Shown here in pieces: positions 3,394 to 63,498 of a stretch of 64,000 nt of DNA. Numbering within the stretch: position 1 is the stretch's first letter; each line of letters starts with the position of its first letter. This DNA comes from Labilithrix sp. (GTDB lineage Bacteria; Myxococcota_A; Polyangia; Polyangiales; Polyangiaceae): the NCBI GenBank assembly GCA_044227045.1, contig JBGAFW010000002.1:67457-131456 (forward strand). The letters run 5' to 3'. The position numbers were made by a program, and so were the translations under genes. A model generated the notes under the pieces. That model ran no database searches and was not told the origin of the DNA. It saw only the letters and a list, made by a program, of their open reading frames with translations.

Positions 3394-4287
3394 TCAGTAG
3401 TCGTCGCTCGAGCCGCCGCCACCGAACGTGCCGCCGCCGCCCCCGTAGCCGCCGCCTCCGCCGCCACCACCGCCGCCGCCTCCGCCACCGCGCCCACCAA
3501 AGCGGCCGAAGAGAAGGACCCAGAAGAGGATCTCGCGGAACGTGGGTGAGATGATCGCGAGGATGATCACGCCAAGGATCACCGCGCCGATGATCCCGAT
3601 CTGAATCCACTGCGGAAGCGCGGCGAACCCGGTCTTCGGCGCGTTCGGATCGGGGATCGCTTCGCCGTTTCCTCGCCGCGATCTCGTCTTCGACGATTGG
3701 CCTGCCGAGTCGCTCTTGCCGCCGGGCGTGTTCTCGACGAGCTCTTTCAAGATCGCGTCGGTGCCGCGATCCATCGCCTCGTACGTTCGTCCCTCCTTCA
3801 TCAGGGGGCCGATCACGTCGCGGTTGATGTGGCTCGACTGGACGTCGGTGAGCGCGCCGCCGACGCCTTTGCCGGTCTCGATGCGGAGCTTGCGATCGCC
3901 GAGCGACGCGATGAGGAGCACGCCGTCGTCTGCGCCCTTCGAGCCGACGCCCCACTGGTTGCCTGCCATGTAGCCGACGTCGTCGATCGTCAGCCCGTCC
4001 GGCAGCTTCGGCAGAAGATAGACGACGATCGCGAAGCCCGTCTGCTTGCGCGCGCGGTCGAGCTTGCGGTCGAGCTTCTGCAGCTCCTGCGGCGACAACG
4101 CTCCCGCTTGGTCGACGACGTGGCCGCTCAGCGGCGGCGGATTCCACTTCGCGGGTGCCGTGTCGTCCGCAAAGGCCGACGAAGGCCACGCCGTCGCGAC
4201 GAGCAGGACGACGAACGCGACCATCGCTCCGACGAAATTTCCCCATGTTTTGGAGAGAGACGACGTGGAAGCGGAGCCTCGAAGCAC
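3394..4287 (-). CDS. TPM-domain (YgcG-like) protein with a TM segment and a poly-Gly C-terminal tail
   Basis: Signal peptide, then a TPM fold (GHVVDQAGALSPQELQKLDRKL...GFAIVVYLL...NQWGVGSKGADDGVLLIASLGDRKLRIETGKG), then a TM segment and the run G(14)YGGGGG. Confidence 0.8.
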   Translation of the reverse strand: MLRGSASTSSLSKTWGNFVGAMVAFVVLLVATAWPSSAFADDTAPAKWNPPPLSGHVVDQAGALSPQELQKLDRKLDRARKQTGFAIVVYLLPKLPDGLTIDDVGYMAGNQWGVGSKGADDGVLLIASLGDRKLRIETGKGVGGALTDVQSSHINRDVIGPLMKEGRTYEAMDRGTDAILKELVENTPGGKSDSAGQSSKTRSRRGNGEAIPDPNAPKTGFAALPQWIQIGIIGAVILGVIILAIISPTFREILFWVLLFGRFGGRGGGGGGGGGGGGGGYGGGGGTFGGGGSSDDY

Positions 4288-8149: not shown

Positions 8150-9187
8150 GTGCGTGGCTCTCTTCTGACGTCGTTCGTGCTCGCCGGTGCCGCGGTCGCC
8201 CTCGGCGCGAGCGTCGTTTTCGAGCGCGAAGCGCAGGCGAGCCCGTCGGCCAAGCTCGTCTATGTGCGTGGGGCGGGGGCCGATTCGTGTCCAGGGGAGG
8301 CCGAGCTGCGAAAGGCCGTGGCGCAGCGCCTTGGCTACGATCCGTTCTTTCCGGTCGCGCAGAAGACCGTGATCGCGCAGGTGCAGCGAGCACCGAGCGG
8401 CTTCACCGGCCGCGTTCAGATCGTCGGCGATGACGGGAACATTCGCGGCGAGAGGGAGCTCGCGACGAAGGGCGACGACTGCAAGGAGCTCGCCCTCGCG
8501 CTGGCGCTCGCGGTGAGCCTCGCGCTCGACGACCTCGACGACGCGCCCGCGAAGCCTCCGGCCAAGCCCGACGAGCCGCCACCACCACCACCGCCGCCGC
8601 CACCACCGCCGCGTGATCCACCGCCGGTCGTCATGGAGCCGAAGGACGACGGCGGATCGCGCGCGCCGGTTCGCGTCGTGGACGGGCCTTCGATGCAGCT
8701 CGCCGCGTCGCTGGGTCCGATCGCGACCTTGGGAACCGCCCCCGACATCGCGGCGGGCGCGAGCTTGGCGATCGCGCTCCGCTGGCCGGCGTCCGCCTTC
8801 GCGCTTCGCGTCGACGTACGGAGCGAGCTTCCGTCGAGCAAATCGCTCGCGCAGGGAGGGAAGGTGTCGACCAACGACGTGGTGGGGACGGTCGCTGCAT
8901 GCCTGCGCGGCAAGATCCCGTTCGGCTGCATCGGCGGAGGCGCAGGCGTCCTCTTCTCGAGGACCGAGAACATCACGAGGCCTGCCAGTGATCGCGCGTC
9001 TCTCATCGTCGGCGTCGCGCGTGGCGGCGCGGACATCGCGCTCGGCTCGCGTCTCTACCTCGAGCCGTTCGCAGAGGTGGGCCTCAACGTCCTCTCCCGT
9101 ACGGTCGAGGTCGACGGCCGGGCCGTCTACGAGACCTCTCCCGTGTGGGCCGCCGTCGGTATCCACCTGGGCGGTCGTTTCCTTTAA
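8150..9187 (+). CDS. Hypothetical secreted protein with a poly-Pro linker; its stop overlaps the ECF sigma start
   Basis: High GC3. A GTG start gives a signal-like N-terminus (RGSLLTSFVLAGAAVALGASV). A P(12) run. The stop TAA overlaps the ATG of the ECF sigma gene (TAATG). The antisense ORF 8027..9166 is Arg-rich junk. Confidence 0.5.
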   Translation: MRGSLLTSFVLAGAAVALGASVVFEREAQASPSAKLVYVRGAGADSCPGEAELRKAVAQRLGYDPFFPVAQKTVIAQVQRAPSGFTGRVQIVGDDGNIRGERELATKGDDCKELALALALAVSLALDDLDDAPAKPPAKPDEPPPPPPPPPPPPRDPPPVVMEPKDDGGSRAPVRVVDGPSMQLAASLGPIATLGTAPDIAAGASLAIALRWPASAFALRVDVRSELPSSKSLAQGGKVSTNDVVGTVAACLRGKIPFGCIGGGAGVLFSRTENITRPASDRASLIVGVARGGADIALGSRLYLEPFAEVGLNVLSRTVEVDGRAVYETSPVWAAVGIHLGGRFL

Positions 9188-32719: not shown

Positions 32720-33076
32720 TGCGATGGTCATGCCGTCGACCCAAGGGCGGGTCATGGACGGACGGGCTGCCAAATCCCCCAATGATTTTCGCGGCCGTCT
32801 CCACGCCTGCGGTTGTTTGGGCCTGTAGGGATTCCGACAGCTGAAGCCGGTCCCAACAGACAGGTCGATGTGCGTTCCGACAAATCGACCGCACCGGTTT
32901 TTTTTTGGTCGGACGCCTTCCGCGGAGCCACGCGATGCTTAGGGCACGAGAGCGCTGCGGGCGCACGAGGTGCCACCTCGATGATGGATGTGCGCCGGCC
33001 GCGGTAGAACCTTCTCGTTTTCTCTCGGTTTTCTTGCTTGGAGGCGGCCCTCCACCAACGCTACGCTTTGGCTCTG

Positions 33077-34678
33077 ATGGCGGCGAAGCTCGCGCGATCG
33101 CAGCGGACTGCTACGCGGGGATCCATCCCCGACGTGGGACGGTCGACGCTCAAGGTCGGTGACCTGCTCGCCAGCAAGTACCGCGTCGAGCGCGTGCTCG
33201 GCGAAGGCGGCATGGGCGTGGTTGTCGAAGCCTATCACGAGCTTCTCGATCAACGCGTCGCGGTCAAGCTCCTCTACCAAGACATCGCCGACCGTGAAGC
33301 GCAGTCGCGCCTCCTGCTCGAAGCGCGCTCCGCGGCGAAGCTCCAGAGCGATCACGTCGCGCGCGTCATCGACGTCGACGTCGGGCCGGACGGATTGCCC
33401 TTCATTGTCATGGAGCTGCTCGAGGGCTCTGATCTCTGCCAGATCGCCGATGCGCGCGGTGCGCTGCCTCGATGGTTGGTTGTAGATTACATGCTTCAGG
33501 CGCTCGAGGGGCTCGCGCACGCGCATGGTCGCCAGATCATCCATCGCGATCTGAAGCCGTCGAATCTCTTCCTCACCAACCGCCCGGACGGAACGCAGAT
33601 CATCAAGATCCTCGACTTCGGGATCTCGAAGTCTTCGGGTGATCCGGGAGATCGAAGGCAAGCGCAGCTCACCGGCGGGCGCAGCGTCCTCGGCTCGCCG
33701 CCGTACATGTCACCGGAGCAGGTACGAAGCCCGAAGAGCGTCGATCACCGCACGGACATCTGGTCGCTCGGGATCTGCATGTACGAGCTCCTTACGAACT
33801 CGATGCCGTTCGGCGGCGACGAGCTCCAAGAGACGTTCGCGCAGATCCTCGAGAAGGAGCCCACGCCCATTCGTGCGCTCGTCACGGGCGTCCCGGAAGG
33901 CCTCGAGCAGGTCGTGATGAAGTGCCTCGCCAAGAACCGCGAGAATCGCTTCAGCGACGTGGGCGAGCTCGCCAAGGCGATCGTTCCGTACGGCTCGGGC
34001 ACGTGGATTCAATCGGCCGATCGCGTGCAAGCGACGCTCGCGCGTGCGCTGATGGAAGACCTCACGAGCGGCACGCGTCTCCGCGGACCGTCCGCGCCCT
34101 CGTCCGATCGCATCCCGATCCCGTCGTCGCGTCGCCTCGACTCGATGCAGCCCGAGCTCACCGGCACAGCGAGCACCGTCGCGCGCCGCTTTACCGTCTT
34201 CGAGTCGAAGAAGCGCTGGATCCTCGGCGTCGCGGCCGTCTCGGCGCTCGCAGGTCTCGGGCTCATCGGCGTCGGCGTCATGAAGTCCCAAGCGGTCGCG
34301 CCGGGCGCCGAGCTCGATCCGAGCGCGTCGGGTCGCCCGAGCGAGCCGCCGGCCGCCGCGGTCGATCCGTCGACCGTCACGACCGTCACGCCTACGCCCA
34401 CGGCTCCGAGCCAGCCGGCGATGGTCTCCGTCGAGAACGATCTGCCTTCGATGCCCACGAACGCGACCGGCACGGTGATCGGCGCGTCGTCCCCAGGCAC
34501 GAACACGCCCGCCGCCGCGACAGGCTCGGCGAAGCGCGGAGGCGCGGCTCCCACGCTCCGTGCTCCGCCGCCTCCCACGACGAAGAAGCCAAGCAGCAGC
34601 GGAGCGACACCGTCTGCCGCGGGTGGCTCGAAGCCTGGCTTGCCACCAGGTCTTCCGCAAAATCGCTCGGGTCAATGA
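33077..34678 (+). CDS. Ser/Thr protein kinase
   Basis: GEGGMGVVVEA, VAVKLL, IIHRDLKPSNLFL, DFGISK, SPEQ. Pro/Thr/Ala-rich C-terminus. The ATG at 33077 (MAAKLARSQ) is the first in-frame ATG. Confidence 0.8.
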   Translation: MAAKLARSQRTATRGSIPDVGRSTLKVGDLLASKYRVERVLGEGGMGVVVEAYHELLDQRVAVKLLYQDIADREAQSRLLLEARSAAKLQSDHVARVIDVDVGPDGLPFIVMELLEGSDLCQIADARGALPRWLVVDYMLQALEGLAHAHGRQIIHRDLKPSNLFLTNRPDGTQIIKILDFGISKSSGDPGDRRQAQLTGGRSVLGSPPYMSPEQVRSPKSVDHRTDIWSLGICMYELLTNSMPFGGDELQETFAQILEKEPTPIRALVTGVPEGLEQVVMKCLAKNRENRFSDVGELAKAIVPYGSGTWIQSADRVQATLARALMEDLTSGTRLRGPSAPSSDRIPIPSSRRLDSMQPELTGTASTVARRFTVFESKKRWILGVAAVSALAGLGLIGVGVMKSQAVAPGAELDPSASGRPSEPPAAAVDPSTVTTVTPTPTAPSQPAMVSVENDLPSMPTNATGTVIGASSPGTNTPAAATGSAKRGGAAPTLRAPPPPTTKKPSSSGATPSAAGGSKPGLPPGLPQNRSGQ

Positions 34679-35709
34679 GATCTCTCGCGCGGACGCTCAC
34701 CCTCGCCGCTGTCTCCTCGTCTCTGATCCTCGGTAGCGGCGTCGTACACGCGCAGGACAAGGATCAAGACGCCGAGCGCCTCTTTCGTGAGGGGCAGAAG
34801 CTCATGGAAGAGCGGCGCTACGGCGACGCGTGCCCGAAGTTCGAGGCGGCGTACCGGAAGGATCAGCAGCTCGGCACGTTGCTGAACCTCGCCTACTGCC
34901 ACAAAGAGCAAGGCGCGACGTGGCAGGCGTGGCTCGAGTTCAAGGACGCCGAGATGAAGGCGACCGAGCTACGCCGGAGCGACCGCAAGGAGTTCGCGCG
35001 CCAGAGGATGACGGAGCTCGAGAAGGAGAAGGCGCTCACGCGTATGGTGATCGAGCCCACGACGAAGGTGGAGCTCACCGAGGTGCTCGTCGAAGACCGC
35101 CGCATCCCCGAGGCGGAGAAGAGCGTCCCGTTTGCGGTCGAGCCAGGTCGAGAGCGCAAGGTCACGTTCCGCGCGAAGGGCAAGAAGGACAAGGTCCACT
35201 TCGTCAGCGTGTCGAAGAGCGACAAGCCGATGAAGGTCGCCGTCCCGGACATGGTCGACGAAGAGAAGGCGCCGCCTCCTCCTGCTGTGGTTGATCCGCC
35301 GCCGCCGCCGCCGCCGACCCATCAAGACGTGCGTCCCGTCGAGCCGCCGAAAGAGAAGAGCGACGGCTCGACCCAACGGGTCCTCGCCTATGGCCTCGGC
35401 GGGCTCGCGGTGGTGGGCATCGCGGTCGGGACGGTCGAGGGCCTCGCCGTCATCAACAACCCTTGCTCGAATCAGACACCCGAAGAGAAGGCAGGCACGA
35501 AGCCGTCGCCTTGCACACCCGACGAGAAGTCGAAGGGCGACACCGCATCGCTCGTCGCGACGATCTCGTTCGCGGCTGGCGGCGCCGCGCTCGTGGGCGC
35601 CCTCATCTTGTATTTCACCGCTCCGAGCAGCGACGCGAAGACGGGCAAGGGCTTTCACGTCACGCCAGAGATGGGTGTCGGTTGGGCCGGATTTCGCGGC
35701 GCGTTCTGA
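34675..35709 (+). CDS. Kinase-coupled signal-TPR-beta-domain-TM protein (paralog of the 23663 and 44343 proteins)
   Basis: Its ATG overlaps the kinase stop (ATGA). Signal peptide MRSLARTLTLAAVSSSLILGSGVVHA. TPR-like block (LLNLAYCHKEQGATWQAWLEF). A P(8) run. C-terminal TM segment. Confidence 0.65.
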   Translation: MRSLARTLTLAAVSSSLILGSGVVHAQDKDQDAERLFREGQKLMEERRYGDACPKFEAAYRKDQQLGTLLNLAYCHKEQGATWQAWLEFKDAEMKATELRRSDRKEFARQRMTELEKEKALTRMVIEPTTKVELTEVLVEDRRIPEAEKSVPFAVEPGRERKVTFRAKGKKDKVHFVSVSKSDKPMKVAVPDMVDEEKAPPPPAVVDPPPPPPPTHQDVRPVEPPKEKSDGSTQRVLAYGLGGLAVVGIAVGTVEGLAVINNPCSNQTPEEKAGTKPSPCTPDEKSKGDTASLVATISFAAGGAALVGALILYFTAPSSDAKTGKGFHVTPEMGVGWAGFRGAF

Positions 35710-35855
35710 TCGGTCGTATGCGCGGGGTTTGGGGCGGAGCCCCAACGTGAAGCATACGACGCGTGAGCGAGTCTTCGAGCGAAGGGGGATCCGTTTGCGC
35801 GGAGCGCAAATCGGTCGTATGCGCGGGGTTTGGGGCGGAGCCCCAATGTGAAGAA
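35690..35855. repeat. Intergenic hairpin-repeat element, locus 1 (about 1.5 tandem units), abutting the hisZ start
   Basis: The units contain TTTGCGC-GGAG-CGCAAA and GTCGTATGC-GCGGGGTTTGGGGC-GGAG-CCCCAA-YGTGAAGCATACGAC. The same family recurs at 51456..51666. Confidence 0.7.
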
Positions 35856-35856
35856 C

Positions 35857-37077
35857 ATGCTCGAACATCCGCTGCCGCCCGGAATGCGCGACCTCCTGCC
35901 CGAAGAGGCCAAGGAGCGACGGGATCTCTCACGCGCGATCCTCGAACGCTTCGCGCTTCACGGCTACCGGCTCGTCACGCCGCCCGCCTTCGAGCTCGCG
36001 AGCGTGCTCGAGCGTGGCCTTGGCGCGTCGTCGGTCACCGACGACGTCATTCGCTTCATCGAGCCCGAGTCGGGCGAGGTCGTCGTGCTTCGGCCCGACA
36101 TGACGCCTCAGATCGCGCGCATGGTCGCGACGCGCCTCTTCGATCGCCCGCCGCCGTTTCGGCTCGCCTACGAAGGCACCGTCATCCGCCGGCGCGCGTC
36201 GCGCGCGAAGAAGCAGAAGCAGATCCCGCAGGTCGGCGTCGAGCTCTGCGGCGTCGCGGGCGCGGAGGGAGACCTCGAGCTGCTCCGCCTCGCCGCCGAG
36301 GTCTTGCGTGACGCCGGCCTCGACGCCTTCATCCTCGACATCGGAGACGCCGGGATCGTCCGCGGGTTGCTCGAAGGCGTCGCGCCCGATCACGCGATGA
36401 GCATCTCGGCGGCGCTCGCGAAGAAGGACGAGGCATCGCTCGAAGAGCTGTGCCGCTCGCTCGACGAAGCGCTGGCCCATCGCGTGATGGCGCTGTCGCG
36501 CCTTCATGGCGGTCGCGACGCGCTCACGAGCGCGATCGAGCTGCTCTCGGGGACGAACGCCGAGCCGCCCGCGCGAAGGCTGCTCGCGCTCTTCGACGCG
36601 GCGACCGCGAGCGGTCTTGGCGACGTGCTCACGGCCGACCCCGGCGAGGTGCGCGGCCTGTCGTATTACACGGGCACGATCTTCTCCATCTACGCCGAAG
36701 GATCGGGCGATCCGCTCGGAGGTGGAGGTCGCTACGACGATCTGCTCGCGCGCTACGGCTCGCCGCAGCCCGCGATCGGCCTCGGGCTCGATCTCGACGC
36801 GCTCGCTCGCGCGATCCGCGCCGCGAAGGAGGCTCGCACGCGCTCGCAAGCGCCGCCGGAGACGCCTGCGAGCGTCGTCGTGGTCGGACCGAGCAGCGAT
36901 CCACGACTGGGCGAGCTGCGCAAGCGCGGCGTCATGGCGATCGCGATCGAAGACGCCGAAAAAGCGAAGGCTCACGCGAAGGCATGGGGTTTTGGCGTCG
37001 TGTGGACAGATTCTTCGACGTGGTCGTCGACCGACGAGGTCGTGGCCATGCTAAGAACGCCGCGTTCCAGACCGTGA
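35857..37077 (+). CDS. hisZ: ATP phosphoribosyltransferase regulatory subunit HisZ (HisRS paralog)
   Basis: Class-II aaRS core with the HisZ-type LRPDMTPQIAR motif and GGRYDDL. Directly upstream of purA, which is the classical arrangement. Confidence 0.75.
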   Translation: MLEHPLPPGMRDLLPEEAKERRDLSRAILERFALHGYRLVTPPAFELASVLERGLGASSVTDDVIRFIEPESGEVVVLRPDMTPQIARMVATRLFDRPPPFRLAYEGTVIRRRASRAKKQKQIPQVGVELCGVAGAEGDLELLRLAAEVLRDAGLDAFILDIGDAGIVRGLLEGVAPDHAMSISAALAKKDEASLEELCRSLDEALAHRVMALSRLHGGRDALTSAIELLSGTNAEPPARRLLALFDAATASGLGDVLTADPGEVRGLSYYTGTIFSIYAEGSGDPLGGGGRYDDLLARYGSPQPAIGLGLDLDALARAIRAAKEARTRSQAPPETPASVVVVGPSSDPRLGELRKRGVMAIAIEDAEKAKAHAKAWGFGVVWTDSSTWSSTDEVVAMLRTPRSRP

Positions 37078-37096
37078 CCCATCCAGGAGAAGACAG

Positions 37097-38380
37097 ATGC
37101 CGGCCGTCGTGATCGTAGGTGCGCAGTGGGGTGACGAAGGCAAAGGCAAGATCGTCGACATCTTCACCGAGCACGCCGACATGGTCGTTCGCTACGGTGG
37201 CGGGCCGAACGCGGGCCACACGCTCGTCGTCGGTGACGAGAAGATCGTCGTCCGTCTCGTCCCGAGCGGCGTGCTTCGTCGCGATGTCTCGTGCGTCCTC
37301 GGCCAAGGCATGGTCATCGATCCGAGGAGCCTCGTCTCCGAGCTCGACGACCTCGAGAAGCGCGGCGTGAACGCCAAAGAGCGCCTCATCGTGTCCGATC
37401 GCGCACACGCGATCTTGCCGTATCACGTCACGATCGACGGCCTGCGCGAGCAGGGCAAAGGGGCGATCGGCACGACGAAGCGCGGCGTTGGCCCGTGCTA
37501 CGAGGACAAGGTCGCGCGCCGTGGCATCACGCTCGGCACGTTCCGCGATCCGAAGAGGCTCCGCGAGCTCGTCACCCGCGCGCTCGAAGGTTGGGCGCCC
37601 GTCATGACGGCCCTCGGCGCGGACAAGGCCGCGTCCAGCGTCGACGAGGTGATGGCTGCGCTCGAGCCCACCCGCGCGCGGATCGTGTCGATGCTCGCGG
37701 CGACGCAGCCGATCGTGGCGCGCGCGATCGAAGCAAAGAAGAAGGTCGTCCTCGAGGGCGCGCAGGGCACGCTGCTCGACGTCGATCACGGCACCTATCC
37801 GTTCGTCACGTCGTCGACGCCCACGTCGGGCGGTGCATGTGTCGGCGCCGGCGTCGGGCCGAGCCGCATCGACGCCGTGATCGGCCTCGTGAAGGCGTAC
37901 ACGACGCGCGTCGGCGGCGGTCCGTTCCCGACGGAGCTCCACGACGAGATCGGAGAGCGCATTCGCAAGATCGGCGCCGAGTTCGGCTCGGTGACCGGAC
38001 GGCCACGACGCACCGGTTGGCTCGATCTCCCTGCGCTGCGCTACGCCGTGTCCGTCAACGGCCTCGACGGCCTCGCGCTGACGAAGCTCGACGTCTTGAC
38101 GGGGCTCGACGAGGTGAAGGCCTGCGTGGCGTACGACACGCCGTCCGGCCGCACGACCGACTTCCCGATCGACGATCTCCACACCGCGACGCCCGTCTAC
38201 AAAAGCTTCCCTGGATGGAAAGAGGAGCTCGGGAAGGCGCGCGCCATGGAAGAGCTCCCGAGCGCGGCGCGCACGTTCCTCCGCTTCATCGAGGAAGAAG
38301 CGGGCTGCCCGCTCAACCTCGTCAGCATCGGATCGCGACGCGACGAGACGATCGTCCTGCGCGATCCGTTTCCGTCCTGA
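37097..38380 (+). CDS. purA: Adenylosuccinate synthetase
   Basis: GAQWGDEGKGK P-loop, GGGPNAGHT, GTTKRGVGP, TGRPRRTGWLD. Confidence 0.95.
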   Translation: MPAVVIVGAQWGDEGKGKIVDIFTEHADMVVRYGGGPNAGHTLVVGDEKIVVRLVPSGVLRRDVSCVLGQGMVIDPRSLVSELDDLEKRGVNAKERLIVSDRAHAILPYHVTIDGLREQGKGAIGTTKRGVGPCYEDKVARRGITLGTFRDPKRLRELVTRALEGWAPVMTALGADKAASSVDEVMAALEPTRARIVSMLAATQPIVARAIEAKKKVVLEGAQGTLLDVDHGTYPFVTSSTPTSGGACVGAGVGPSRIDAVIGLVKAYTTRVGGGPFPTELHDEIGERIRKIGAEFGSVTGRPRRTGWLDLPALRYAVSVNGLDGLALTKLDVLTGLDEVKACVAYDTPSGRTTDFPIDDLHTATPVYKSFPGWKEELGKARAMEELPSAARTFLRFIEEEAGCPLNLVSIGSRRDETIVLRDPFPS

Positions 38381-42805: not shown

Positions 42806-44320
42806 ATGATGGACGTCGACTGCGGTTCCGCTCGAGATCGACTCGGGCGGACACTCGGCGGAAAATATCACCTGAAGGAGGTCCTGGGCGCAGGCGGGAC
42901 CGCCGTCGTGTATCGCGCAGAGTCCATCACCGGCGAGCGCGTCGCGATCAAGGTGCTCCACGATCACCTGAGTCGGAGCGAGGAGGTTTGTCGTCGCTTC
43001 GTTCGTGAAGGCCAGCTCGGCAACGCGCTCGATCATCCGGGCACGGTGCGCGTGCTCGACTACGGCGGCACCGAAGAAGGTTGCCCGTACCTCGTGCTCG
43101 AGCTTCTCGAAGGCGAGTCGCTCGAAGAACGGCGCGTTCGCAGCGGCGGTCGCCTCGAGATGTGGGAGACGCTCGACTTCTGCGATCAGCTCCTCGCGGT
43201 GCTCGAGATCGCGCACGCCAAGAGCATCGTCCATCGCGACATCAAGCCGTCGAACCTCTTCGTGACGAAGACCGGCGTGCTCAAGGTGCTCGACTTCGGC
43301 ATCGCGCGATTCACCGACGACACCTCTTCGGCGACCTCGACGAAGACCGGAACGATGGTCGGGACCCCGGCGTTCATGCCGCCAGAGCAGGCGCTCTCGC
43401 GGCCTCGTGACGTCGACGCGCGCACGGATATCTGGTCCGTCGGCGCGACGCTCTTCACGCTTCTCTCCGGTGAGCACGTGCACATCGCCGAGACGAGCAG
43501 CGAGCATCTCGTCAAGGCCGCCACGCTCCACGCGCGATCGCTCGCGCGCGCGCTGCCCGGCGTCCCTGCCAACGTCGAAGCGCTCGTGGCGCGCTGTCTC
43601 GCGTTCGACAAGAACGAGCGCTGGTCGTCGGCCACGACGATGCGCGTCGAGCTCACGTTCGTCCGCGAAGACCCAGGTCGTCGCATCGGCACCTCGACGT
43701 CACCTCCGCCGGAGCGTTACCCGAGCAACCCGAACATGCCGACGATCATCGGCTCGATGCGCGCGCATCAAGAGGCCGGGACGATCTCTGCGACTGGCAG
43801 CGACCCGCCGGTATCCTCGCGCGGCGCGCGTGCGATCCGAAGCGATCGTCCGAGCGATCACAGCGACGTGAACATGTCGCTCAACTCGATGACGGGCGCC
43901 TACGAGTCGCGTCCGCGTCGCAAATGGCTTCTCCCATTCGCGATCACGTCCACGGTGATGCTCGGGATCATGAGCGTCGCCGTGTTGATGCTCGCCATCC
44001 GGACCACGAACCCGTCCCAGGCCGCCACGGTCGCCGCCGCGAACAGCAACAGCGGCAACACCGGCGCGCCCGCGAACACCGACGTCGTGCCCGCGAACGC
44101 CGACGTCCCGCCCGCGATCGAGCTGCCCGCTGACCCGACCGAGACGGCGCCGAAGACGGCGCAGTCTTCTGTAGCGGCTTCACGACCTGCTTCGACAACC
44201 ACGTCGATAACGCCGATGTCTTCCGCGCGGCCCACGACGACGATCACCGTCACGACGTCACCGAAGAAGCCTGCGCCCGCGAAGGGCCCGTTCAACAAAG
44301 ACCTATATCGCCCGTTCTGA
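42806..44320 (+). CDS. Ser/Thr protein kinase with a C-terminal TM anchor
   Basis: GAGGTAVVYRA, VAIKVL, IVHRDIKPSNLFV, DFGIARF, PPEQ. TM segment (FAITSTVMLGIMSVAVLMLAI). Confidence 0.85.
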   Translation: MMDVDCGSARDRLGRTLGGKYHLKEVLGAGGTAVVYRAESITGERVAIKVLHDHLSRSEEVCRRFVREGQLGNALDHPGTVRVLDYGGTEEGCPYLVLELLEGESLEERRVRSGGRLEMWETLDFCDQLLAVLEIAHAKSIVHRDIKPSNLFVTKTGVLKVLDFGIARFTDDTSSATSTKTGTMVGTPAFMPPEQALSRPRDVDARTDIWSVGATLFTLLSGEHVHIAETSSEHLVKAATLHARSLARALPGVPANVEALVARCLAFDKNERWSSATTMRVELTFVREDPGRRIGTSTSPPPERYPSNPNMPTIIGSMRAHQEAGTISATGSDPPVSSRGARAIRSDRPSDHSDVNMSLNSMTGAYESRPRRKWLLPFAITSTVMLGIMSVAVLMLAIRTTNPSQAATVAAANSNSGNTGAPANTDVVPANADVPPAIELPADPTETAPKTAQSSVAASRPASTTTSITPMSSARPTTTITVTTSPKKPAPAKGPFNKDLYRPF

Positions 44321-44342
44321 CCAGCGGCTGTAGAATGGCTCC

Positions 44343-45326
44343 ATGAGCAAGCGAGTCATCTTCGCGTCCCTCACGATGGGAGCGATGCTCGCGTGGCAGT
44401 CGACGGCGCTCGCAGGCGATCCGGCGGTCGCTCGAGAGCAGCTGAAGATCGGCTACGGCCTCGCGCAGGAAGGCAAATGCGAAGACGCGCTCCCTCACTT
44501 CATCGAGAGCCTTCGCCTCGATCCGAAGGCGATCACGCTCATCAACCTCGCCGACTGCGAAGAGAAGGTCGGCAAGCTCGCTGACGCGCTCGCGCACTGG
44601 GCCGATGCGCGTGCGCGTGCGTCGGCCGAAGGCGCTCGGCCGATCGAAGAAGAGGCGACGAAGCGCGCGGCGGCGCTCGACCCGCGCCTGCCACGCCTCA
44701 CGATCACGCTCGCGCCCGCCGTCCCGAAGGACGCGACGGTCGAACGCGACGGCATCGCGCTCGGGGCTCCGTCGCTCAACATCCCGCTTCCGGTCGACCC
44801 TGGCGCGCACACGCTCGTCGTGAAGGCGAAGGGCCGTGCCGAGAAGACGACGTCGCTCACGATCGCCGAGGGTGAGTCGAAGCGCGTCGAGCTCGACGTG
44901 GGGCCGGCGTCGACCACGGACGTCCCGCCGGCGAAGCCGCCACCCAGCGGCGCCGTCGACCGTCGAGAGCCCGAGAAATCCTCGCTGAGCCCGCTCGTCT
45001 ACATCGGCTTTGGGACGGCGGCGGTGGGCGTCGCCGTCGGTACCGCCACCGGCATCATCGCGCTCGGCAAGGGCAACGACGCCGAGAAGACGTGTCCGAA
45101 TCAGCAATGCGCTTCCCAGGAGGCGCTCGACAAGACGAACGACAACGTCGATTCGGGTCGCACCGTCGGGTGGATCTCGACGATCTCGTTCGGCGTCGCG
45201 GCGGTGGGCGCGGGCGTCGGCATCTACGGCCTCCTCTTCGCGCGTGAGAAGCCCGAGACGTCGACCTCCACCAGCGTCGGTCTCTCGTTCGCGCCGAATG
45301 GAGCGGTCCTTCGAGGGCGCTTCTGA
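44343..45326 (+). CDS. Kinase-coupled signal-TPR-beta-domain-TM protein (paralog of 34675)
   Basis: Signal peptide. TPR-like block (LINLADCEEKVGKLADALAHWADARA). Beta-rich middle. TM near the C-terminus (ISTISFGVAAVGAGVGIYGLLF). Confidence 0.65.
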   Translation: MSKRVIFASLTMGAMLAWQSTALAGDPAVAREQLKIGYGLAQEGKCEDALPHFIESLRLDPKAITLINLADCEEKVGKLADALAHWADARARASAEGARPIEEEATKRAAALDPRLPRLTITLAPAVPKDATVERDGIALGAPSLNIPLPVDPGAHTLVVKAKGRAEKTTSLTIAEGESKRVELDVGPASTTDVPPAKPPPSGAVDRREPEKSSLSPLVYIGFGTAAVGVAVGTATGIIALGKGNDAEKTCPNQQCASQEALDKTNDNVDSGRTVGWISTISFGVAAVGAGVGIYGLLFAREKPETSTSTSVGLSFAPNGAVLRGRF

Positions 45327-51395: not shown

Positions 51396-51455
51396 ATCGG
51401 AGCGACCCGGCCGTTCGGTCCAACCCGTCGGATCCACCTCGCGCGTCCGCCGAGG

Positions 51456-51666
51456 AAGCATGCGACCCCTGAGCGAGTCTTCGAGCGAAGGGGGATCCGT
51501 TTGCGCGGAGCGCAAATCGGTCGCATGCGCGGGGTTTGGGGCGGAGCCCCATGTTGAGCGTGAAGCATGCGACCCCTGAGCGAGTCTTCGAGCGAAGGGG
51601 GATCCGTTTGCGCGGAGCGCAAATCGGTCGCATGCGCGGGGTTTGGGGCAGAGCCCCAACGTGAAG
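51456..51666. repeat. Intergenic hairpin-repeat element, locus 2 (about 2 tandem units of roughly 105 bp)
   Basis: Same family as locus 1. The outer stem is GTCGCATGC/GCATGCGAC here versus GTCGTATGC/GCATACGAC at locus 1, a compensatory change. The GGAG-looped hairpins are conserved. Confidence 0.7.
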
Positions 51667-51761
51667 AGCTTGCCCGACGCGCGAGAGGCGACTACACACG
51701 GCAGCACGAACCGGTAACGGGGAGCTGGTAGAAACGCCGCGCCTGCAAAACGCGGAGAGTC

Positions 51762-60357: not shown

Positions 60358-61398
60358 TCAGAAGACGTCAGTCTTGTCGTTCCGCGCGTTCGCGGTCCGC
60401 GGCGCATCCATCGCGACGCGGATCTCGCGAACCTGCTCGGGCGTGACCTCGACGGTGAGGCTCTTGCGCGCGCCGTTCGGCGCCGTGAGGACGAGCACGT
60501 GCCGTCCAGCGATGACCGGTCGATGGAAGACATGGCCGGGGCCGATCGGGACGCCGTTGTCGAAGATGGCGTCGCATTTCGGCAGGCACACCACCGTGAG
60601 CGCTCCCATGCGATTCGGCGCGGCCAGCGGCGCGCCGCTCATGTTCGCGCTCGCGTTCGGGTCGTCCTCGTCGGTGGGCGGAGCGACCATCGCAGGTCGT
60701 CGTCGACGGATCGCGGCGGTCGTGGTCGGCGGCGGGGAGGGGTGCGTGTCCGCCAGCGAGGCGCCGATCACGACGCCGTGCGGTGAGGGAGCCGACGGTT
60801 CGTTGTCGATCGACGCCGTCGCCGCGGGCGTGACGACCGGCAGGGCCGGCGCAGGCGTCGTGAACGGGATCGTCGAGGCATGCTCCGCCGGCGCAAAGGC
60901 GAGCTGATCGATCCCGAGGATCGTCGCCCCAAGGAGCGTCGCGGCGGCGGCACCTGCGAGCGCGACCTTCCACGCCTCGCGGCGTTCGAGCCGATGAAGG
61001 ACGCCCGTTGTCAGCGCGGTCGACTCCTGCCGCTTCACGCGCCGCTCGTCTCCGTCACCGGTGCGTTGAAGCTCTGCGAGGCGTGCGGCGATGGCTTGCT
61101 CCTCGGCCTTCGCCGCCTCGAGGTCGGCGCGCGCGCGGGCGATCGCAGCGCGAAGCGCGTCCGCACGTCGAGCGAGCGCATCGAGCTCGGCGTTGACGTG
61201 CTGACCGGAGGCTGCGGTGGTTGCGGAGGCTGCGGCGCTTGCGGAGGTTGCGGCGGCTGCGGTGCCTGCGGGGGCTGCGGCGCTTGTTGCGGCTGGGGCT
61301 GCGGCGCTTGTTGCGGCTGCGGTGCCTGCGGGGGCTGTGGTGTTTGTTGGGGCGAACGTGGTCTCGAGCTCGTGTTGCCGCCCGTCGTCGCTGCTCAT
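60358..61398 (-). CDS. PEGA-domain protein with Ala/Thr-rich repeats, a coiled-coil and a TM segment; antisense between nuoH and nuoI (start could be 61497)
   Basis: C-terminal PEGA ([43 protein letters not shown]). TM segment ([18 protein letters not shown]). Contains the 60-bp tandem DNA repeat. Confidence 0.55.
61207..61350. repeat. Imperfect tandem repeat of about 60 bp (2 copies) with nested GCGGCTGCGG-type 9-12 bp sub-repeats, inside the PEGA gene
   Basis: GGCTGCGGTGCCTGCGGGGGCTG recurs at 61255 and 61315. It encodes the [15 protein letters not shown] low-complexity segment. Confidence 0.5.
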
Positions 61399-62223: not shown

Positions 62224-62937
62224 ATGACGAGCGCCGATCTCACGGGACGTATTGGCGGCTACAAGGGCGTGGCGATCCGTTGTCCGGGTTGCGGCGAGCC
62301 GATGCGCCAACACAACCTCGAGGAGGCGAAGGCGGAGGTCGACGTCTGCGACGCGTGCGGCGGCATGTGGGTCGACTGGTTCGACGGCGAGGTCCGCGTG
62401 ATCGCGACGGAGACCTTGCGCACGAGCGATCCCGGCCCAGCGCCTGCAGCAGCCACCACAGCCACCACGGCCACGACCACGACCACGACCACGACCACCG
62501 TCGCCGCGCCTTCGTCGAAGGACGAAGGCCGCCCGTCCCGCAACGAGGCCGTCGCGATCGGCGCGTGTCCACGCTGTCATGCGCGCCAGCTCGTCGCGGA
62601 GCGCTACGAGGTGAAAGCGGAGGTCGCGAGCGCCCGCATCGAAGACCGGACTTCGATCGTCGCAGGAAAGACGGGCGCCGAGCTCCTCCGATGCGAGGAC
62701 TGCATGGGCTCGTTCGTCTCGCGATCGAGCGCGGAGGTCCTCTCGTGGCTCTCGTCGCACCATGACGAGCCGCCGCCGCAAAGCCAGGCGCGCCCCGACG
62801 CGACGAAGGCGCTCAAGCCCGTACCGTGGGATCGCTTCGTGGCCCTCATGAAAGGCCTGCTAGGCCTTCGCAAAGAGGGCGCAGCGAAGGCTGAAGCGAA
62901 GCCCGAAGCGAAGAAGCCCGCAGCCAAGCCAACGTGA
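62224..62937 (+). CDS. Double zinc-ribbon (zf-TFIIB-like) protein with a poly-Thr run and a Lys/Ala/Pro tail
   Basis: CPGCGEPM...CDACGGMWVDWFD and CPRCHARQL...CEDCMGSFV. The run TTATTATTTTTTTTT comes from (ACS)n at about 62452-62500. Confidence 0.6.
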   Translation: MTSADLTGRIGGYKGVAIRCPGCGEPMRQHNLEEAKAEVDVCDACGGMWVDWFDGEVRVIATETLRTSDPGPAPAAATTATTATTTTTTTTTVAAPSSKDEGRPSRNEAVAIGACPRCHARQLVAERYEVKAEVASARIEDRTSIVAGKTGAELLRCEDCMGSFVSRSSAEVLSWLSSHHDEPPPQSQARPDATKALKPVPWDRFVALMKGLLGLRKEGAAKAEAKPEAKKPAAKPT

Positions 62938-63093
62938 CCCGCACTCAACGTGACCCGCACCGCGATGCCCGAAGCGAAGCCAACGTGACCCGCACTGCGA
63001 TGCCCGAAGCGAAGCCAACGTGACCCGCACCGCGATGCCCGAAGCGAAGCCAACGTGACCCGCACCGCGATGCCCGAAGCGAAGCCAACGTGC
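62927..63093. repeat. Perfect 35-bp tandem repeat, about 4.5 copies (GATGCCCGAAGCGAAGCCAACGTGACCCGCACYGC)
   Basis: The period of 35 was verified at 62964, 62999, 63034 and 63069. Each unit carries ATGCCCGAAGCGAAGCCAACGTGA (M-P-E-A-K-P-T-stop). The last unit has TGA changed to TGC and reads through into the VOC gene. Confidence 0.85.
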
Positions 63094-63096
63094 GCG

Positions 63097-63498
63097 ATGC
63101 ACGTCGTCCTCTACGTCCGCGACCAAGCGGCGAGCCGCGACTTCTATGCGGCGGTGCTCGAACGAACGCCGCGCCTCGACGTGCCAGGAATGACGGAGAT
63201 CGAGATCGCGCCAGGAGCCGTCCTCGCGCTGATGCCAGAGTCTGGCATCACACGTCTACTCGGAGGTGCGATCGACCCATCGAAGCTCGAGGCGCCAGGC
63301 CGCGCCGAGCTCTATCTCCTCGTCGACGACCCGCAGTCGCATCACGCGAGGGCGCTCGCGTATGGCGCACGTGAGCTATCGCCGTTCGAAGCGCGCGACT
63401 GGGGCCATAACGCGGCCTACAGCCTCGACGCCGACGGGTACGTCCTCGCGTTCGCAGAGCCGCGCGCTCAATCGAAGGGGTTGTCAGGAATGCGGTAG
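63097..63498 (+). CDS. VOC-family (glyoxalase/bleomycin-resistance fold) protein
   Basis: MHVVLYVRDQAASRDFYAAVL...EIEIAPGAVLALM...YVLAFAE. Alternative upstream starts inside the repeat array (ATG at 63055 or 63076) are in frame. Confidence 0.65.
   Translation: MHVVLYVRDQAASRDFYAAVLERTPRLDVPGMTEIEIAPGAVLALMPESGITRLLGGAIDPSKLEAPGRAELYLLVDDPQSHHARALAYGARELSPFEARDWGHNAAYSLDADGYVLAFAEPRAQSKGLSGMR

Follow-up and report, generated by a model that had tools for sequence, protein, structure and literature searches.

Repetitive extragenic palindromes (REPs) and bacterial interspersed mosaic elements (BIMEs) of Enterobacteria and Pseudomonas are short, imperfect, GC-rich intergenic palindromes, which number tens to hundreds of copies per genome, occur in composite arrays, are present in some strains and absent from others, and cause breaks in assemblies. 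In E. coli the first stem of a REP can start 4 nt after a stop codon, and REPs in this position can affect the expression of the upstream gene. The BOX elements of Streptococcus pneumoniae, the enterobacterial repetitive intergenic consensus (ERIC) sequences and the Correia/NEMIS elements have a modular build, with an internal module in variable tandem number, and a stable predicted structure, and they lie in intergenic DNA beside gene starts, where expression can change. Here a repeat with these properties is described from a stretch of 64,000 nt (referred to as the window) of Labilithrix sp. (assembly GCA_044227045.1, contig JBGAFW010000002.1, positions 67,457 to 131,456 of the forward strand), in which two intergenic sites, one directly before hisZ and one behind a cytochrome P450 gene, carry tandem copies of one double-hairpin unit of about 105 nt, as found by reading of the sequence and by a repeat finder. 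We consider it moderately probable that both loci represent a lineage-specific, non-coding, composite palindromic intergenic repeat of the REP/BIME or BOX kind in a Labilithrix-like myxobacterium, spreading at the DNA level and affecting its neighbours incidentally; the DNA-level mode of spreading and any effect on expression are the parts of this reading that we infer. The repeat is a newly seen family in a little-studied myxobacterial lineage, with a recent gain at hisZ, and repeat families of Myxococcota have barely been described. When the literature was searched by sequence strings, no paper was found that describes either the repeat or the hairpin module that is contained in it.

A double-hairpin unit in two intergenic arrays

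Each unit is 101-107 nt long and consists of a nested hairpin (B), a 33-nt linker and a 7-bp hairpin (A). The outer stem of hairpin B has 9 bp (GTCGYATGC / GCATRCGAC) and encloses GCGC-GGGG-T followed by an inner 7-bp hairpin, TTGGGGC-GGA-GCCCCAA, and hairpin A is TTTGCGC-GGA-GCGCAAA. The repeat finder gives a period of 101 nt at locus 1 and of 107 nt at locus 2, with copies that are 84-92% identical across 119 nt; the period of the unit is not divisible by 3. Every unit lies in direct orientation on the + strand.

Array 1 (35711..35856, + strand) reads B, linker, A and a truncated B’. The full copy of hairpin B spans 35713..35760, with the outer arms GTCGTATGC (35713-21) and GCATACGAC (35752-60) and the inner hairpin at 35729-45. 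It is followed by the linker GCGTGAGCGAGTCTTCGAGCGAAGGGGGATCCG (35761..35793), which is the same in all three copies save for its first 3 nt, by hairpin A with its GCGGAGC core (35794..35810), and by the terminal B’ (35814..35853), which has the 5’ arm, the inner hairpin (35830-35846) and GTGAAG. Array 2 (51455..51668, + strand) starts with the remnant of a 3’ arm of B and continues as linker, A (51500..51516), B (51520..51573), linker, A (51607..51623) and truncated B’ (51627..51668). Its full B is the C/G variant of the outer stem, has a 6-nt insertion and has lost the outermost inner pair through an A>T change, and its terminal B’ has an AGA loop (51650-52) and ends in GTGAAGAG. The last copy at either locus is without the 3’ outer arm, and both arrays terminate in an identical truncated B’ (...CCCCAAYGTGAAGAR), so that this looks like a defined end of the element.

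Both arrays lie between a stop codon and a start codon, in the same orientation as the flanking genes. Array 1 is preceded by a gene for a hypothetical protein of 344 aa (34675..35709, + strand), the partner of a Ser/Thr kinase gene, whose stop codon is 4 nt before the outer stem of B, and it is followed by hisZ (35857..37077, + strand), coding for the regulatory subunit of ATP phosphoribosyltransferase, and then by purA. Array 2 has the cytochrome P450 gene (50034..51395, + strand) on its upstream side and a gene for a hypothetical protein of 193 aa on the other. The initial annotation had placed the element at 35690..35855 and 51456..51666; the repeat itself is upheld, and its coordinates are corrected to 35711-35856 and 51455-51668, as the positions 35690-35709 are the 3’ end of the upstream coding sequence (TGA stop at 35707-35709). 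The observation that the repeat ends 3 nt before the hisZ ATG is correct, with the homology stopping at 35853 and the ATG at 35857.

The description of this element as a structured intergenic repeat family is in agreement with the repeat finder, with shuffling and with folding. The 17-mers of hairpin A and of the inner B hairpin were found 3 and 4 times on the + strand of the window, and shuffled sequences gave 0.59 and 0.16 matches even when 3 mismatches were allowed, the observed counts never being reached. Of the eight RGA-triloop hairpins in the 64-kb window whose stem is perfect and 6 bp or longer, seven are inside the arrays, all on the + strand. On folding of the unit, proposed initially as a check, A and B are significantly stable (z -2.8 to -4.7). 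The predicted RNA fold of B has -28.7 kcal/mol (z -4.7) at locus 1 and -32.7 kcal/mol (z -3.7) at locus 2, that of A has -11.9 kcal/mol (z -2.8), and the hairpin B of locus 1, calculated with DNA parameters, has -16.7 kcal/mol (z -4.3). The folds with DNA parameters and of the opposite strand are similarly significant, the minus strand being equal to or better than the plus strand. The loops had been taken to be GGAG loops; the GGAG is present, but it is not a tetraloop, being a GGA triloop that is closed by a C-G pair, in which the last G is the first base of the stem. One hairpin copy carries an AGA loop in place of GGA.

The outer stem of B differs between the loci at one pair, which is T35717 with A35756 at locus 1 (T35818 being the same variant) and C51524 with G51569 at locus 2 (C51631 and G51462 being the same variant). 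The pairing is preserved and this is a true compensatory pair, as was claimed initially; its reading as a signature of selection on structure is retained only in part, as a single covarying pair is suggestive and not a proof, and palindrome-templated correction of the DNA would explain it equally well. Hairpin-templated correction in quasi-palindromes yields the same pattern without selection on RNA. All arms of a locus share the variant, and the compensatory difference therefore counts as one or two events, so the pair would have been fixed before the tandem duplications. A rough estimate of the probability that two independent neutral substitutions restore one pair among about 7 substitutions is p ~0.03. 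The outer arms pair just as well across adjacent units. The other differences between the copies are two substitutions just past the 3’ arm, one in a loop, one in the internal loop and the 6-nt insertion, and the uncompensated A>T, by which the inner stem loses its outermost pair, is also present in relatives that are ~95% identical.

The leader of hisZ with and without the array

The site before hisZ is also known without the array. A Logan contig of run SRR28480388 (L001) is 100% identical to the window at 33186-35710 and 35856-37802 (2525 and 1947 nt), and between TGAT and CATG it has a 45-nt spacer, AAAGACAGAGCGTCGAAATCTCGACGGAACGGATAGCCGCCCAAG, in place of the array, which is 145 nt long in the window. 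Apart from one A/G difference, this spacer is also found in three further contigs: L130 (JGI 3300006092), L131 (SRR1027651) and L132 (DRR438487, ~95% identical). The gene order around hisZ is the same in all four spacer-bearing assemblies, and the spacer is unrelated to the array. As it is present in four independent assemblies, which come from the same strain or from sister strains, the spacer is ancestral, and the array has taken its place before hisZ very recently and in one strain only. Presence/absence polymorphism between close strains is therefore seen at hisZ itself. When the filled and the empty site are compared, no target-site duplication is found, as 45 nt are replaced; the left junction has a microhomology of 2 nt (AT), and at the right junction the element (GAAG-CATGCGAC) and the native sequence (CAAG-CATGCTCG) have AAGCATGC in common. 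The HisZ of the source strain is ~70% identical to proteins of Labilithrix metagenome-assembled genomes and 62% to that of Labilithrix luteola. In L. luteola the same pair of kinase and hypothetical genes precedes hisZ.

The array took out the native hisZ leader, and its last hairpin provides a GGAG (35837-40) and a GTG (35848-50) that is in frame with hisZ (35837..35850, + strand). The HisZ protein annotated by NCBI has 409 aa (MKNMLEHP...) and starts at this GTG, 7 nt after the GGAG, and in array-less relatives HisZ has 406-407 aa and starts from the ATG, which is the ancestral start. In this strain the start of hisZ is ambiguous between the GTG of the repeat and the ATG (35848-35859). The GGAG and GTG supplied by the repeat are a consequence of the insertion and not evidence of a designed switch. 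The Shine-Dalgarno-like GGAG that was pointed out in the initial annotation does form, with the GTG, the start annotated by NCBI, and the designed gate that was proposed on this basis is not borne out. The repeat that has freshly overwritten the hisZ leader brings along a ribosome-binding motif and a start codon. This illustrates, in nature, how translation starts may be rewired by selfish hairpin repeats and how such an insertion misleads gene callers (HisZ of 409 versus 406 aa). The alleles with and without the array form a natural pair, which can be used to test the effects of the array on its neighbours.

A dedicated cis-regulatory RNA of hisZ-purA, in which the last hairpin sequesters the Shine-Dalgarno sequence or the start codon, would make use of just this geometry, the GGAG being 7 nt before the in-frame GTG and 16 nt before the ATG, and the start region of hisZ is able to pair with the 5’ arm of the terminal copy (-18.7 kcal/mol), but with a z of only -0.4. 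This reading, which corresponds to the initially proposed riboregulator or attenuator that gates hisZ-purA, is now very improbable and appears largely refuted by the empty-site alleles, as the element is missing at the same site in the four assemblies with the same gene order and near-identical genes. There is also no copy at this site in L. luteola or in a relative with 72% HisZ identity and no conserved association with hisZ across relatives, and the same element follows the unrelated P450 gene. Rfam gave nothing relevant for the whole window (gathering thresholds), for locus 2 (E<=10) or for 18 metagenome loci, and neither a sigma-70-like promoter nor a T-tailed intrinsic terminator was found at either locus, consensus scans being weak evidence for a myxobacterium. 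Among the candidate classes that were named initially, the REP/BIME-like one is the closest, and the riboregulator is set aside. It is just as improbable that the hisZ array is an artefact of assembly or binning of the NCBI genome, with locus 2 alone being real. All Logan and JGI contigs across the hisZ junction show the 45-nt spacer, and the array is seen in the NCBI contig only; against this, each junction is clean and falls no more than a few bases from a gene end, the 8 positions at which the units differ from locus 2 show that they are not a collapsed copy of it, and the exact flanking genes on either side would not be restored in a chimera. An artificial edit of the window was also considered and is rejected, because the locus-2 repeat is present in independent Logan assemblies and the NCBI HisZ of 409 aa starts inside the array.

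The 3’ junction of array 2 is found in four Logan contigs (L125, L126, L127 and L128; runs SRR28480385, SRR28480381, DRR438487 and SRR30350723). These contigs enter array 2 at its 3’ end and then stop inside it, and such assembly breaks are the behaviour seen at repeats. Relatives that are ~95% identical have a slightly different terminal copy, and an AG/AGAG microindel right after the terminal GTGAAG (51665-51668, compared with L127 and L128) varies between strains; another contig of run SRR28480388 (L123) ends exactly at 51665 because of this microindel. By these contigs, which cover its 3’ junction, array 2 is older than array 1, and natural rather than an artefact; look-ups of the exact proteins of the P450 gene, of nuoD and of a 214-aa open reading frame gave no match in relatives, because start codons or contig breaks are different. 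Over 143 nt the two arrays are separated by 8 substitutions and a 6-nt indel, and the flanks of array 1 are unchanged. The donor of array 1 was therefore another copy, and the family is larger than the two loci, by at least one copy.

Compared with the known classes of repeats, the arrays share with REPs and BIMEs the short, imperfect, GC-rich palindromes in intergenic composite arrays, the polymorphism between strains, the assembly breaks and, with the REPs of E. coli, a first stem that starts 4 nt after the stop codon, and they differ in having a 105-nt composite unit with a nested hairpin. With BOX, ERIC and Correia/NEMIS the modular build, the variable tandem number, the stable predicted structure and the position are shared, but there is no sequence similarity, the phylum and the GC content are different, and the arrays are without terminal inverted repeats or target-site duplication. 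With miniature inverted-repeat transposable elements (MITEs) they have in common the presence/absence polymorphism between close strains. A number of observations weigh against the assignment to a spreading repeat of the REP/BIME or BOX kind. The GTAG/GTGG head of REPs is missing, as neither array contains GTAG or CTAC, and the alternating orientation of REPs is not seen, all units being direct. Terminal inverted repeats as in MITEs are not found either, the ends B and B’ being direct and each internally palindromic, and neither is a MITE-type target-site duplication at hisZ. The copies counted are two loci, with four 5’ halves of B and three copies of A, within 64 kb; the hisZ array allele is known from one NCBI assembly; and the syntenic DNA of L. 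luteola and of the relative with 72% HisZ identity has no copy. The 20-mer of hairpin A was found in only one Streptomyces contig among 185,579 GTDB species-representative genomes, the source genome not being among them. No REP-associated tyrosine transposase (RAYT) or other transposase is linked to the element, with the open reading frames of the window not having been screened systematically. The shared direction of both arrays and their flanking genes also fits a role at the RNA level, and the mechanism at the DNA level is one that we infer from hairpin chemistry.

Hairpin chemistry and the level of action

The heptamer GCGGAGC is at the centre of six of the seven hairpins of the window, the seventh having GCAGAGC, and its GGA triloop is closed by a C-G pair and has a potential sheared G:A pair. 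It conforms to d(GCGNAGC), with a GNA triloop closed by C-G. Because GCGGAGC is at the centre of both hairpins, the repeat would act mainly at the DNA level. Tight triloops typify hairpins of DNA rather than stable hairpins of RNA, and this tilts the mechanism toward single-stranded DNA (ssDNA). DNAs with the sequences GCGNAGC and GCGNNAGC are mini-hairpins that are exceptionally stable against heat and nucleases; such mini-hairpins are present at the complementary-strand origins of ssDNA phages and at ssiA of RSF1010, and GCGGAGC is the hairpin of the single-strand promoters of phage N4, used by its virion RNA polymerase (PMC13037366). The telomere palindromes of Streptomyces use GNA loops, and the central heptamer of Palindrome I is complementary to GCGGAGC (PMC5449611). 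The array hairpins have only the central heptamer in common with the d(GCGNAGC) DNAs, the stems and the context being unrelated; the arrays are chromosomal and myxobacterial, and their likeness to priming sites, to ssDNA transcription signals and to telomeres is by sequence alone.

The hairpins based on GCGGAGC probably form on single-stranded DNA during replication, where they would promote slippage, generating arrays, template switching, generating replacement insertions, and illegitimate recombination. The repeat would multiply locally by tandem duplication and reach new intergenic sites via recombination or template switching, and not by cut-and-paste transposition. Hairpin-templated correction, selection for a foldable hairpin, or the two together would maintain the match between the complementary arms. 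When transcribed, an array would add very stable stem-loops to the mRNA, with a possible 3’ barrier directly after the upstream stop codon, and at hisZ its last hairpin would contain a new site of initiation, made up of GGAG and GTG.

Two other explanations would keep the hairpins for a function of their own. A transcribed RNA acting in trans or as a sponge, being a small RNA family, a GGA decoy of the CsrA/RsmA type or a 3’-untranslated stabiliser selected as RNA, is suggested by the several GGA-loop hairpins per array, which are also a feature of the sponge RNAs of the CsrB/RsmZ type, all of them on the strand of the flanking genes, by the stable RNA folds, and by the possible U-G intermediate of the compensatory pair. 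It is nevertheless quite unlikely. The loop that presents GGA is a tight triloop with a closing C-G pair and not a larger loop as in the sponge RNAs, and CsrA sites favour larger loops; the sites resembling promoters or terminators that such an RNA would have were not found at either locus; the minus strand folds as well or better; the GCGGAGC core is a signature of DNA mini-hairpins; and the hisZ copy is a very recent arrival. A functional ssDNA signal, serving in priming or replication initiation, as a landing site for a protein or as a recombination site, with the copies being kept for this function, is only slightly less doubtful. The match of GCGGAGC with the hairpins of ssDNA origins and N4 promoters is in agreement with it, as are the positions of the inner hairpin of B outside the window, which is on the coding (virion) strand and close to replication genes in small viral contigs and is also found within IS3 and IS21 elements (see below). 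Against it, the likeness is one of sequence, the orientation of the module relative to genes varies with the context, the GC skew of the window is too weak to assign leading and lagging replication strands, and the hisZ copy is dispensable in sister strains. The reading as a spreading, composite palindromic repeat, with incidental effects on its neighbours, is preferred over both.

The inner hairpin outside the window

The inner hairpin of B belongs to a module, defined here as the CGGGGT-hairpin module, in which C-GGGG-T is followed by a 7-bp stem, NN-GGGGC / GCCCC-N’N’, whose loop is purine-rich and 3 nt long. Of the four inner hairpins of B, three agree exactly with this rule, and in the copy at 51537-51551 the outermost pair is opened by the A>T change. 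A 21-mer of hairpin B, GGGGTTTGGGGCRGAGCCCCA, matched at least 120 contigs of metagenomes, which were sampled from termite and human gut, from the sea, from peat and from soil, and among these contigs the full 105-nt unit is confined to the lineage of the window. The following counts and descriptions of contigs refer, for this search and for the viral contigs below, to the matches listed. The contigs have a GC content of 38-65% and flanks without relation to the unit. In 92% the 21-mer is preceded by C, and a perfect hairpin of 6-11 bp that ends exactly 1 nt upstream of the 21-mer is present in 30 of 117, with 24 different arms, compared with a rate of 1.5% at random positions; this upstream hairpin is itself often preceded by GGGGT.

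The relaxed pattern CGGGGT-NN-GGGGC-NNN-GCCCC has at least 120 loci in viral contigs. In 99 instances the NN pairs covary, with 82 double-change cells compared with 26.4 +/- 5.5 after shuffling (reached in 0 of 500 shuffles), and 95.8% of the cells are paired; the commonest loops are AGA, GGA and AGC. Among the Microviridae-like contigs that encode a rolling-circle initiator of the REP_ORF2-G2P type, 22 of 23 carry the module on the coding strand. It lies 25-41 nt before the start of Rep in two Rep groups that are 29% identical to each other, and over the small viral contigs, some of them Microviridae-like, it is on the coding strand either 25-41 nt or ~210-224 nt upstream of Rep (PF23343; L138, L150, L176, L180, L185, L188, L197, L233, L237, L249; L166/L177; L142, L221). 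In five contigs of tailed phages (L135, L145, L147, L169, L196) the variant CGGGGTCCGGGGCAGCGCCCCGG is located in the short gap between the genes of the terminase large subunit and the portal protein and, when read on the gene strand, lies ~17 nt before the portal ATG.

In ten metagenome contigs the 22-nt core is found 1-40 nt past the stop codon of a transposase gene, always in the opposite orientation, the gene being istB of IS21 in five (L004, L018, L019, L029, L073) and orfB of IS3 in the other five (L040, L046, L051, L052, L057); in L051 the core overlaps the orfB stop codon. The transposase strand of these contigs always reads TGGGGCYCTGCCCCAAACCCC. In another contig (L033) an ISAs1 transposase gene starts 45 nt after the core. 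The possibility that the core is the terminal inverted repeat of an insertion sequence is not supported, as in L040 it lies inside the insertion sequence, ~105 nt from the inverted repeat; no inverted repeats could be defined in L019 or L057. A role of the 22-mer as the regulator of one gene family is rejected, because the downstream genes are unrelated.

The module shows strong covariation and an association with mobile elements. It is conceivable, although doubtful, that the inner hairpin of B represents a structured module, very widely distributed and not described before, which serves as a portable ssDNA signal built on the GNA/GCGGAGC mini-hairpin, such as a priming site or origin of the complementary strand or a recombination hairpin, which has been moved between phyla by mobile elements and captured by chromosomal repeats. 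The links of GCGGAGC and of the covarying module with ssDNA phages, insertion sequences and Streptomyces point to a DNA-level logic for some REP-like elements.

Other contexts of the same sequences were also seen. One contig (L007) has inverted 83-nt copies at 807-889 and 2800-2882, 93% complementary and composed of a hairpin, C and GGGGTTTGGGGCAGAGCCCCA, which flank a bacterial sugar transferase gene. Eleven contigs (L020, L039, L042, L062, L065, L101-L103, L111, L118, L120) have a conserved flank of ~150 nt around the 21-mer (...GCTGTAAGCTCCCCnAGC[core]GCCGAAATCGAATTTGGTGCATTTTAGCC...), and this subgroup looks like a high-copy dispersed repeat of one organism, judging from the shared flank. 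A plasmid of Streptomyces sp. NBC_00239 (L133) contains six occurrences of GCGCGGGGTTTGGGGCGGAGCCCCA, which shares its 25 nt with hairpin B, inside long imperfect palindromes; at 1300-1620 a dense run of these palindromes surrounds the 25 nt (CCAGCCTCGCCGGCGTTTGAGGCGC...GCGCCTCAAACGCCGGCGAGGCTGG). In Streptomyces sp. NPDC048269 (L002, 1830-1900) the exact 20-mer of hairpin A, GTTTGCGCGGAGCGCAAATC, is part of a different nested GC-rich palindrome (GGGCTGG...CCAGCCC), and this match is chance-like. The GC-rich nested palindromes of Streptomyces differ from the arrays in their surrounding arms and have no 105-nt unit in common with them; we know of no formal description of these Streptomyces repeats.

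Within the window itself, five tandem copies of a 35-nt unit (CAACGTGACCCGCACCGCGATGCCCGAAGCGAAGC) are present at 62911-63120, between a gene whose product ends in ...AKPT* and the ATG of the gene that follows; they resemble a repeated duplication of the junction between gene end and gene start and form a second kind of intergenic array that ends at a start codon. GC-rich repeats with a period of 9 nt, at 61184-61357 and at 3431-3508 and 8567-8623 (GCTGCGGNG..., CCGCCGCCN...), are probably coding low-complexity stretches rich in Gly, Pro and Ala. The combination of a Ser/Thr kinase gene with a gene for a hypothetical membrane-anchored protein of ~330-344 aa, which precedes array 1, occurs twice in the window, at 33038-35709 and 42806-45326.

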